This document shows, piece after piece, positions 27,137-28,159 of a stretch of DNA of 64,000 bases. This stretch comes from Escherichia coli (GTDB lineage Bacteria; Pseudomonadota; Gammaproteobacteria; Enterobacterales; Enterobacteriaceae). Below the pieces are notes generated by a model, which was given only the letters and a program-made list of their open reading frames with translations, was not told the origin of the DNA and did no database searches. Both the position numbers and the translations under genes were made by a program. The stretch is taken from NCBI RefSeq assembly GCF_003018235.1, contig NZ_CP027437.1. The stretch is one strand, 5' to 3'. How positions within the stretch are numbered: position 1 is the first letter of the stretch; each line of letters starts with the position of its first letter.

Positions 27137-27772
27137 TCTTCTGAATCACCGGGCGACAAAATATAACTGAGTTACAAATAAGTACCAGTCGAATGAGTAT
27201 TGTATTAAGAATTTTTGAGTATCGCTGATACAACCAGAAAACAATGCTAGCGCAATATTATAGGGCCAGCAATTGAGATTATTAGCAAAAGCATGTTGAG
27301 AATTAATCACCGAATTTATATATTAATTATAGTAAGACAATGAGCTTTTTTTGATAGTAAAAATAAAACAAGTTGATTTGATATATTAAATGAACAAATT
27401 AATCTTGATGGCAGTCTGATTATTGGTGAAGTTTATAGGTCAGTTTTTTTTGCCAGCGGTTAAAGGAATAGAATAGTCGTATAAAAAAGGGTGTTCTGGA
27501 GCGTGTAAAACAACATCTGCACCTTAATGGCGATACAGTTGGCTGAGAGTCAGCAGGGGGCAAATCACCTGCAATTAAACACGGCGCATGCTGGTGCGAA
27601 TATCGCGGATGCGTTCGAGGACAGAAGAACCGACAGGCGGATTCTTCAGTCGCTCATCGTCCATCATAAAACCTTTGATCAGGTATTCCTGAAGCCGATT
27701 GAATATTGAGCAGTAGAAAATATCTGGATTGACAGTATTACAAGGGGTTGGAGAATGTCAGAAGAGGCATTT

Positions 27773-27867
27773 TGGCGGAAGATCACAGGAGTCGAACCTG
27801 CCCGGGACCGCTGGCGGCCCCAACTGGATTTGAAGTCCAGCCGCCTCACCGGAGACGACGATCTTCC
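27773..27867 (-). tRNA. selC: tRNA-Sec (selenocysteine, UCA anticodon), 95 nt
   Basis: Plus strand tggcggaagatcacaggagtcgaacctgcccgggaccgctggcggccccaactggatttgaagtccagccgcctcaccggagacgacgatcttcc is the exact reverse complement of E. coli selC as I recall it. Confidence 0.9.
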
Positions 27868-28159
27868 GCGCCTCGATTGCTACATGGAGGCGGGGCGCAT
27901 TATAGCTACTTCCTTGAGTTTCTACATCCCCCAGATCAGTTTTTTCCGCCTAATACACGCAGCGTATTATCACGAAAGCATTATAATTCATATAAAACCC
28001 ATATTTTACAATGATATATGAGCGGAATTAACGCTACCACGATCACATAAAACAAGAATCATAAATTAATAACCAGATATCGGAATATTCGCTCTCACAG
28101 GGATGGTTTACAAAATGCGTTATCGGTCTCAGCACCCCTATAGCATCAAGGAAAAGCAG

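Follow-up and report, generated by a model that had tools for sequence, protein, structure and literature searches.

Organization of the locus

The window, meaning the whole 64-kb stretch of DNA analyzed here, is a piece of E. coli chromosome that runs from adeD to beyond yicR, in reverse orientation relative to K-12 MG1655. It aligns with K-12 at 96.5-98.6% identity outside four gaps, and the junctions of the segments that fill these gaps were set by this alignment. The first-pass annotation had described three or four insertions, at yicN/nepI, nepI/yicS, yicI/yicH, and gltS/recG; the window does carry four extra segments at these places, but they are insertions only relative to K-12. The segments, together with selC and its immediate neighbors, are laid out as follows (positions are those of the window).

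3410-4249, minus strand: toxin-antitoxin (TA) segment between yicN and nepI, immediately past a REP element; replaces 41 bp of K-12
3450-3773, minus strand: HTH antitoxin (HTH_3, 33 bits; weak MqsA and NadS matches)
3757-4116, minus strand: RelE-type toxin (Pfam PF06296, 140 bits)
5529-23594: eip island (published as selC-B), lying between the stop codons of nepI and yicS; replaces 48 bp of K-12
5730-16280, plus strand: iatC/eaeX, intimin-like
16332-18029, minus strand: eilA
18232-19578, minus strand: SipD-like gene
19622-20752, minus strand: hypothetical gene
20765-22546, minus strand: SipB/SseC-like gene
22794-23291, minus strand: SycD-like chaperone
25952-27136, minus strand: setC, backbone gene flanking the selC spacer (ORF list, GN25 annotation)
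about 27566-27757, minus strand: rhuM pseudogene relic, homologous core about 27578-27700 (translation and Pfam PF13310)
27750-27796: att region of selC islands, formed by 24 nt of the tRNA 3' end and 23 nt downstream; single copy
27773-27867, minus strand: selC, tRNA-Sec, anticodon UCA (ARAGORN; Rfam RF01852, 83.8 bits)
28160-29542, plus strand: yicJ, backbone gene on the opposite side of selC (GN25 annotation)
31894-39147, plus strand: frz operon, lying between the yicI terminator and the yicH stop; replaces 24 bp of K-12
32165-33718, plus strand: PRD/Mga-type regulator
32423-32432, plus strand: 10-mer GAGATTGATG, inside the frz regulator gene
33745-34215, plus strand: PTS IIA
34233-34547, plus strand: PTS IIB
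34572-35663, plus strand: PTS IIC
35675-36526 and 36607-37467, plus strand: two class II aldolases
37482-38447, plus strand: ROK kinase
38389-39108, plus strand: lyxose-isomerase/cupin
43858-44714 (CDS 43860-44726), plus strand: 288-aa ORF segment; replaces 172 bp of K-12

The toxin and antitoxin genes overlap by 17 nt and, as adjacent small genes with matching profiles, they represent a predicted type II toxin-antitoxin system. The eip island is complete in gene content, and its proteins are 98-100% identical to those of strains GN25, C4, and KE55; iatC carries an in-frame stop at 13014-13016, within its repeat array, that may be genuine or a sequencing error. All eight ORFs of the frz segment, whose junctions lie at 31893/31894 and 39147/39148, were matched by NCBIfam or Pfam, and both the gene content (with PTS components of the fructose type and aldolases of the ketose-bisphosphate class II) and the location between yicI and yicH are those of the frz operon; the segment is 98.8% identical in DNA to the UTI89 copy. 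The eip island and the frz operon have both already been published. The 288-aa ORF begins 3 bp past the gltS stop, overlaps the 3' end of recG by 16 nt, and has no match in Pfam, NCBIfam, or PADLOC. The GC content of eip is 35-41% in some parts and 60-63% in others, compared with about 50% in the backbone; it is 40-43% in the 5' part of frz and 44-55% in the rest of frz, the TA pair, and the ORF.

All genome counts refer to 5,426 complete E. coli genomes, in which each segment has a single chromosomal place. The TA pair was found in 1716 of them and the 288-aa ORF in 1911, neither ever on a plasmid, while frz was found in 1601 and eip in 719-746, each with one plasmid match. Copies of eip that are 99% identical occur in many complete genomes. 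The best matches per segment reach only 99.0-99.6% identity, so the exact strain from which the window comes is absent from this collection.

The selC site and its rhuM relic

According to ARAGORN, selC is the only tRNA gene in the window. From yicS to yicI (23595-31893), the sequence is colinear with K-12 MG1655 at 96.5% identity and contains no integrase or island, and the SetC protein is 99% identical to that of K-12. The limits of the att region follow from genomes with an occupied selC, whose two halves overlap exactly at window positions 27750-27796; the colinearity with E. albertii stops at position 27750. A mismatch-tolerant search and local alignment, with the distal copy of UTI89 recovered as a positive control, found no second selC 3' end in the window. 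With contiguous backbone genes, one att copy, and no integrase, selC is unoccupied, in agreement with the first-pass annotation. The same contiguous setC-selC-yicJ arrangement is found in 2474 of the 5,426 genomes (about 46%). Of 40 genomes sampled at even spacing, about 19 shared the arrangement of the window, 6 were of the B2 type described below, and about 14 were interrupted at selC by a large insert; about 25 of the 40 (about 63%) had no large selC island. A free selC is the commoner, ordinary state in E. coli.

The interval between setC and yicJ had also been described as containing only the tRNA gene and AT-rich intergenic DNA, and this description has to be amended. The selC-setC spacer, 636 bp long with 38% GC, holds a rhuM relic that scores above the Pfam cut-off for PF13310 (RhuM; 39.8 bits with a cut-off of 33.7, E 4e-10, profile positions 50-94 of 252). 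The relic is not full-length: stop codons stand at both sides, less than 20% of the profile is covered, and an 8-residue stretch found in full-length homologs is missing. It is 75% identical in DNA to the interior of the intact rhuM genes of E. albertii and UTI89. The NCBI pipeline places a partial rhuM at the relic in GN25, C4, KE55, and EC21Z-151, and the K-12 annotation has the pseudogene yicT at about the same position. Our literature search found nothing specific on a rhuM relic adjoining E. coli selC.

Intact versions of this element are found elsewhere. The E. albertii locus reads selC, truncated integrase, DUF4942 gene, intact 345-aa rhuM, and setC, with a partial selC repeat situated between the last two, about 106 bp beyond rhuM. 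In UTI89 (phylogroup B2), an intact 345-aa rhuM directly follows selC and is itself followed by a distal selC repeat, and setC is missing. The distal repeats of UTI89 and E. albertii have the same 4-bp gap, and rhuM also adjoins selC in an Enterobacter sp. and in Klebsiella grimontii. Of rhuM, the window retains just an internal fragment, and it has no distal repeat. It thus appears that the integration of a small rhuM-bearing element at selC took place before the split between E. coli and E. albertii. In E. albertii and in strains of phylogroup B2, the element would still have a partial selC repeat as its boundary. The strain studied here, like most other E. coli, would have lost most of rhuM along with the distal repeat by deletion, keeping about 190 bp of relic and a single intact att sequence. 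We infer from these sequence comparisons that an old rhuM element at selC decayed to a scar here, leaving what is probably a usable att site. Because selC bears this scar, the contrast that had been drawn with an "empty" selC is weaker than claimed.

The position of the distal repeat also bears on the proposal that eip is the far end of a very old, large selC-anchored island, with setC-yicL-nlpA-yicS themselves being island DNA. Among the 80 loci compared, setC occurs in no genus outside Escherichia, and the order of genes downstream of selC differs from genus to genus, as in Siccibacter, where the order is selC-yicN-nepI-yicL; the literature, moreover, terms eip "selC-associated". However, the distal repeat separates rhuM from setC in E. 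albertii and closely follows rhuM in UTI89, so setC and all that lies beyond it fall outside the repeat-bounded element. In addition, yicS and nepI are adjacent without eip in Citrobacter koseri, yicL and nlpA are present in this neighborhood in Citrobacter and Salmonella, and the window contains no further selC repeat or integrase remnant beyond eip, near nepI. We therefore consider an island of this extent very improbable.

Conservation, junctions, and assortment of the four segments

The outgroup comparison used yicJ as the query to retrieve its neighborhoods, 80 species loci in all, onto which the window proteins were mapped; this single scan of the species collection returned no E. fergusonii, E. 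marmotae, or E. ruysiae. The order selC-yicJ-yicI-frz-yicH is kept in five other genera (the Citrobacter freundii complex, Klebsiella grimontii/michiganensis, Phytobacter, Superficieibacter, and Mangrovibacter). The mean identity of six Frz proteins to those of the window was compared with that of YicJ/YicI, with the following result.

Escherichia sp.: Frz 98%, YicJ/YicI 99%
Citrobacter: Frz 88-89%, YicJ/YicI 89-90%
Klebsiella and Superficieibacter: Frz 86-87%, YicJ/YicI 85-86%
Mangrovibacter: Frz 79%, YicJ/YicI 80-81%

That the Frz proteins track their flanks is read from this group-level ordering and not from the rank correlation, which is weak to borderline (rho 0.48, p 0.06, n = 16), with many ties and one truncated locus included. 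The empty frz alleles of E. coli point in the same direction. Strain HS-02 retains the spacer between yicI and frz as well as ~266 nt from the start of the regulator gene, a remnant whose end point is the 10-mer GAGATTGATG. In the empty alleles of K-12, GN25, EC4115, and KE55, nothing but this 10-mer separates the yicI terminator hairpin from the yicH end. The 10-mer occurs once in the 64-kb window, inside the regulator gene, and was present in 48 of 5000 shuffles of the frz segment (about 1%). Such short scars support a deletion of frz in K-12-like lineages. Among the 80 loci, frz is absent in C. sedlakii, Enterobacter, Kluyvera, and K. pneumoniae, and with so patchy a distribution, an ancestral presence requires many losses. 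It is possible that frz was instead transferred repeatedly into a conserved slot through recombination in its flanks.

The TA pair occupies the same slot in C. koseri, where the order is yicS-nepI-RelE-HTH-yicN, and Salmonella has the order nepI-RelE-HTH. Identities to the C. koseri and Salmonella proteins are 68-72% for the toxin, 79-84% for the antitoxin, and 86-87% for NepI. In the 41-bp filler that K-12 has between yicN and nepI, 17 of 19 bases match within the toxin gene, a score equaled by 2 of 300 shuffles, and this short scar would back a deletion origin of the empty K-12 site, more weakly than in the case of frz. Homologs of the RelE toxin are found at about 70% identity across very different Enterobacterales, and this scattered pattern is also compatible with a mobile toxin-antitoxin module. 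The toxin gene of HS-02 was considered as evidence of decay and rejected, as it lies in an assembly stretch full of homopolymer noise.

For the 288-aa ORF, Salmonella enterica has the order gltS-ORF-recG with equally tight spacing and 68-71% identity, and an ORF homolog also adjoins recG in Superficieibacter. The gltS/recG site exists in three allelic forms (the ORF, a 33-bp hairpin, and this hairpin plus a REP-containing insert of about 140 bp), which implies a minimum of two events. The 33-bp allele has no significant similarity to the ORF, so that synteny is what points to a deletion at this site.

For eip, a diverged island adjoins yicS in E. albertii, in the order yicS-chaperone-translocators-eilA-iatC-yicN, with protein identities to the window of 76% for EilA, 73% for the chaperone, and about 24-55% for the translocators. 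The alignable island DNA, which includes 146 bp upstream of iatC, is 67-77% identical, and its immediate flanks reach 74-87%. At identities down to 24-27%, the translocators of E. albertii have diverged much further than the core genes, and they may have been replaced or acquired separately in the same slot. The 48-bp filler of K-12 between nepI and yicS has no significant similarity to the eip segment. By its atypical GC content, eip would be truly foreign DNA, and its position beside yicS probably predates the split between E. coli and E. albertii.

The polarity of the four segments is thus probably for the most part the opposite of insertion. The first-pass annotation spoke of accessory DNA that had accumulated around selC, a view that finds no support where the slots are occupied in other genera or in E. 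albertii and the K-12-type empty sites carry putative deletion scars. Its statement that the four junctions show no site-specific integration held up better. The search that it had proposed for att sites or direct repeats at each junction gave nothing beyond chance: neither direct nor inverted repeats stood out at the four junction pairs, where the longest shared words (6-9 nt) were within what shuffled sequence gives. None of the four segments adjoins a tRNA gene, as all start at least 4.2 kb from selC with backbone genes between. The NCBIfam/Pfam scan found no recombinase among the major ORFs of the TA, frz, and ORF segments, and the NCBI annotation of near-identical eip, frz, TA, and ORF copies lists no integrase or transposase. 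The junctions lie at or beside the ends or terminators of the flanking genes.

The same observations bear on the alternative that each segment was inserted separately by transposition, an integrase, or a phage, with the signatures eroded since. The strongly atypical GC content of eip does imply horizontal entry at some point, the TA segment abuts a REP element, and its toxin family is widely scattered in the Enterobacterales. This would have to be reconciled, however, with junctions that have no repeats beyond chance and coincide with gene ends or terminators, with annotated copies that hold no recombinase remnants, and with the same slots being filled across genera. We find this alternative most improbable.

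The segments also occur in different combinations, as seen in the strains listed below.

Window: TA present, eip present, frz present, ORF present; selC free, with relic
K-12: TA absent, eip absent, frz absent, ORF absent; selC free, with relic
UTI89: TA absent, eip absent, frz present, ORF absent; selC with intact rhuM, no setC
KE55: TA present, eip present, frz absent, ORF present; selC free, with relic
EC21Z-151: TA present, eip present, frz present, ORF absent; selC free, with relic
C4: eip present, frz present, ORF absent; selC free, with relic (the fetched region stops short of the TA slot)
GN25: eip present, frz absent, ORF absent; selC free, with relic (the fetched region stops short of the TA slot)
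EC4115 (O157:H7): frz absent, ORF present; selC with the LEE island (the fetched region stops short of the TA and eip slots)

Other O157:H7 strains carry the TA pair. In steps of 2 kb, the nearest relative of the window alternates between KE55, GN25, and C4 every few kb, with identities from 97.2% to 100%. This mosaic is the expected footprint of homologous recombination, which is clearly active here, and to this extent the first-pass annotation, which had invoked recombination, was right. Its further proposal was that the segments entered ordinary intergenic sites and arrived together as one large pre-assembled flank, bypassing selC. Junctions free of att repeats and integrases would fit such a transfer, as would the clear mosaic in the flanks. 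An uninterrupted selC region accompanies eip in 430 genomes. A joint arrival is also favored by the 197 complete genomes that carry eip, a contiguous selC, and frz together at about 99% identity. The four segments nevertheless assort independently among E. coli strains, which contradicts the transfer of a single flank, and the best-matching strain is a different one for each (RM14723 for the TA pair, KE55 for eip, C4 for frz, and NRZ14408 for the ORF). Three of the segments are, moreover, syntenic in other genera and eip in E. albertii, and the empty alleles appear to bear scars of the occupied state. A joint arrival is, in our view, very unlikely.

History of the locus and comparison with known systems

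The explanation that we consider likely is that a free selC att site is combined here with four old, non-mobile segments that were retained in this strain and lost in K-12 and many other lineages. The frz operon, the RelE/HTH pair, and the 288-aa ORF would have occupied these same slots since the common ancestor of several enterobacterial genera, because gene order is conserved and their divergence is comparable to that of the flanking genes. Their absence from K-12-like strains would be due to local deletions between neighboring genes, which left tiny scars (10 bp in one case, 17 of 19 bp in the other). Homologous recombination in the conserved flanks would then have reassorted the presence and absence alleles, so that combinations differ between strains and the set happens to be complete in this one. 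The four junctions would require no site-specific integration, and the window is without evidence of recent acquisition.

One can also speculate, and only tentatively, that the four segments, and with them the rhuM element at selC, are very long-lived polymorphisms that predate E. coli and in part the splits between genera, and that recombination, perhaps together with niche-dependent selection, kept them from drifting to fixation or loss. The 288-aa ORF, a helical-repeat protein, might in that case be an ancient, functionally retained gene of an undescribed family.

These results call for caution with respect to reference bias, as naming a segment an insertion because K-12 lacks it appears to reverse the history at this locus. 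Both frz and eip are often discussed as pathogen-associated acquisitions, and at this locus they resemble long-standing residents that have disappeared from some lineages. The locus is a compact example of presence and absence alleles that may arise near a tRNA hotspot through deletion and recombination, without mobile-element machinery. The current understanding of E. coli genome dynamics is unchanged by it.

Compared with known systems, the TA pair resembles chromosomal type II modules of the RelE/ParE superfamily with an MqsA/NadS-like HTH antitoxin, which have the same two-gene operon, with the toxin gene first and the two genes overlapping. Unlike modules borne by plasmids or prophages, it keeps one fixed chromosomal slot, both in the 1716 E. 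coli genomes and in C. koseri and Salmonella. At selC, the att sequence used by known islands (LEE, selC-A of strain 042, and P4-like satellites) is intact in the window, which, unlike these integrated islands, has no integrase, second att copy, or cargo. The presence of rhuM near selC is a feature of Salmonella SPI-3 as well, and the window shares with it only the ~190-bp rhuM relic.

The eip/selC-B island is reportedly known from enteroaggregative E. coli 042 (Ren 2004; Sheikh 2006). Its position here is as published, with setC-yicL-nlpA (and yicS) between the island and selC. In the literature, eip is said to be "inserted next to selC"; in the window, however, it is bounded by neither a selC repeat nor an integrase, and a diverged copy occupies the same slot in E. 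albertii. The described gene set comprises iatC/eaeX, eilA, SipD/SipC/SipB-like genes, and a SycD-like (eicA) chaperone (Fox 2020, PMC7058095); the window matches this set, although its iatC carries the possibly genuine in-frame stop. In ST69 isolates, selC-B is present and the phage-like selC-A is mostly missing (Fox 2020, PMC7058095), and selC-B without selC-A is also the configuration of the window. The frz operon, in turn, has been described in extraintestinal pathogenic E. coli as region GR27, yicH..yicI (PMC12928451), where it is attributed to Rouquet 2009 (as cited in PMC12928451), and the window has the same eight-gene content in the same yicI/yicH place. Whereas the operon is usually presented as a pathogen-associated region missing from K-12, frz is seen here as a conserved neighbor of yicJI in several genera, which argues for a loss in K-12 rather than a gain in pathogens.

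The eip island and its adhesin gene

The eip island, which lies between nepI and yicS, carries a giant adhesin gene with an interrupted reading frame.

5730-16280: iatC/eaeX, giant adhesin gene, with an in-frame stop at 13014-13016

The stop falls within an array of 17 repeats of 291 bp (9183-14123), and it may be either a genuine nonsense mutation or a sequencing error. Elsewhere, strains with an uninterrupted iatC/eaeX have copies of 7.6 to 11.1 kb. When the island's right half (16300-23594) is compared with other E. coli genomes, identities are bimodal, at 99% or above in 240 genomes and 90-95% in 418, and the divergence of the latter class far exceeds that of the core genome. 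This pattern suggests that two old allele classes of the right half exist within E. coli.

At the yicN/nepI junction, where the window carries an additional toxin-antitoxin pair, the corresponding region of the deposited HS-02 assembly (L003 37087-38065) is full of extended homopolymers and gives the impression of a low-quality consensus; the "frameshifted toxin" annotated there should not be relied on.

The gltS/recG spacer and the distal flank

The additional segment between gltS and recG holds a single ORF.

43860-44726: 288-aa ORF, overlapping the 3′ end of recG by 16 nt

This overlap alters the recG stop codon. The predicted structure of the product is all-helical and confident (pLDDT 89); no family could be assigned, and solved structures gave no significant match. 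Conservation of the ORF extends to Salmonella, Superficieibacter and Leminorella. Comparison of 43858-44714 with three other loci (L002, L095 and L097) distinguishes three alleles of this spacer in E. coli:

Allele 1: the 288-aa ORF
Allele 2: a 33-bp terminator hairpin
Allele 3: the hairpin plus an insert of ~140 bp that contains a REP element and duplicates part of the hairpin

Further along, GN25 has a copy of IS200C between rph and pyrE (L001 42300-42758), which is missing from the window at ~56200. At 63789-63827, close to the window end, Rfam model RF01707 (55 bits) marks a JUMPstart RNA element, which presumably precedes the LPS core (waa) operon.

frz and the selC site in other genomes

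The order selC-yicJ-yicI-frz was also found in Escherichia sp. MOD1-EC7003, the representative of a separate species cluster, in a species-collection scan whose returned loci included neither E. coli nor other named Escherichia species. Its YicJ is ~99-100% identical to that of the window, and its frz regulator only 96%.

Two other loci carry additional DNA at selC:

L095 13555-15974: UTI89, intact rhuM flanked by selC and a partial selC repeat
L093 1-6479: E. albertii read assembly, P4-like satellite (Psu, Ogr/Delta, AlpA, primase)

In UTI89, this arrangement forms a mini-island of 1.2 kb, and setC is missing; the same coverage pattern together with an annotated full-length rhuM occurs in ~15% of sampled genomes. 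The E. albertii satellite lies upstream of a truncated integrase-DUF4942-rhuM remnant at selC, and the two together exemplify tandem build-up at this site.
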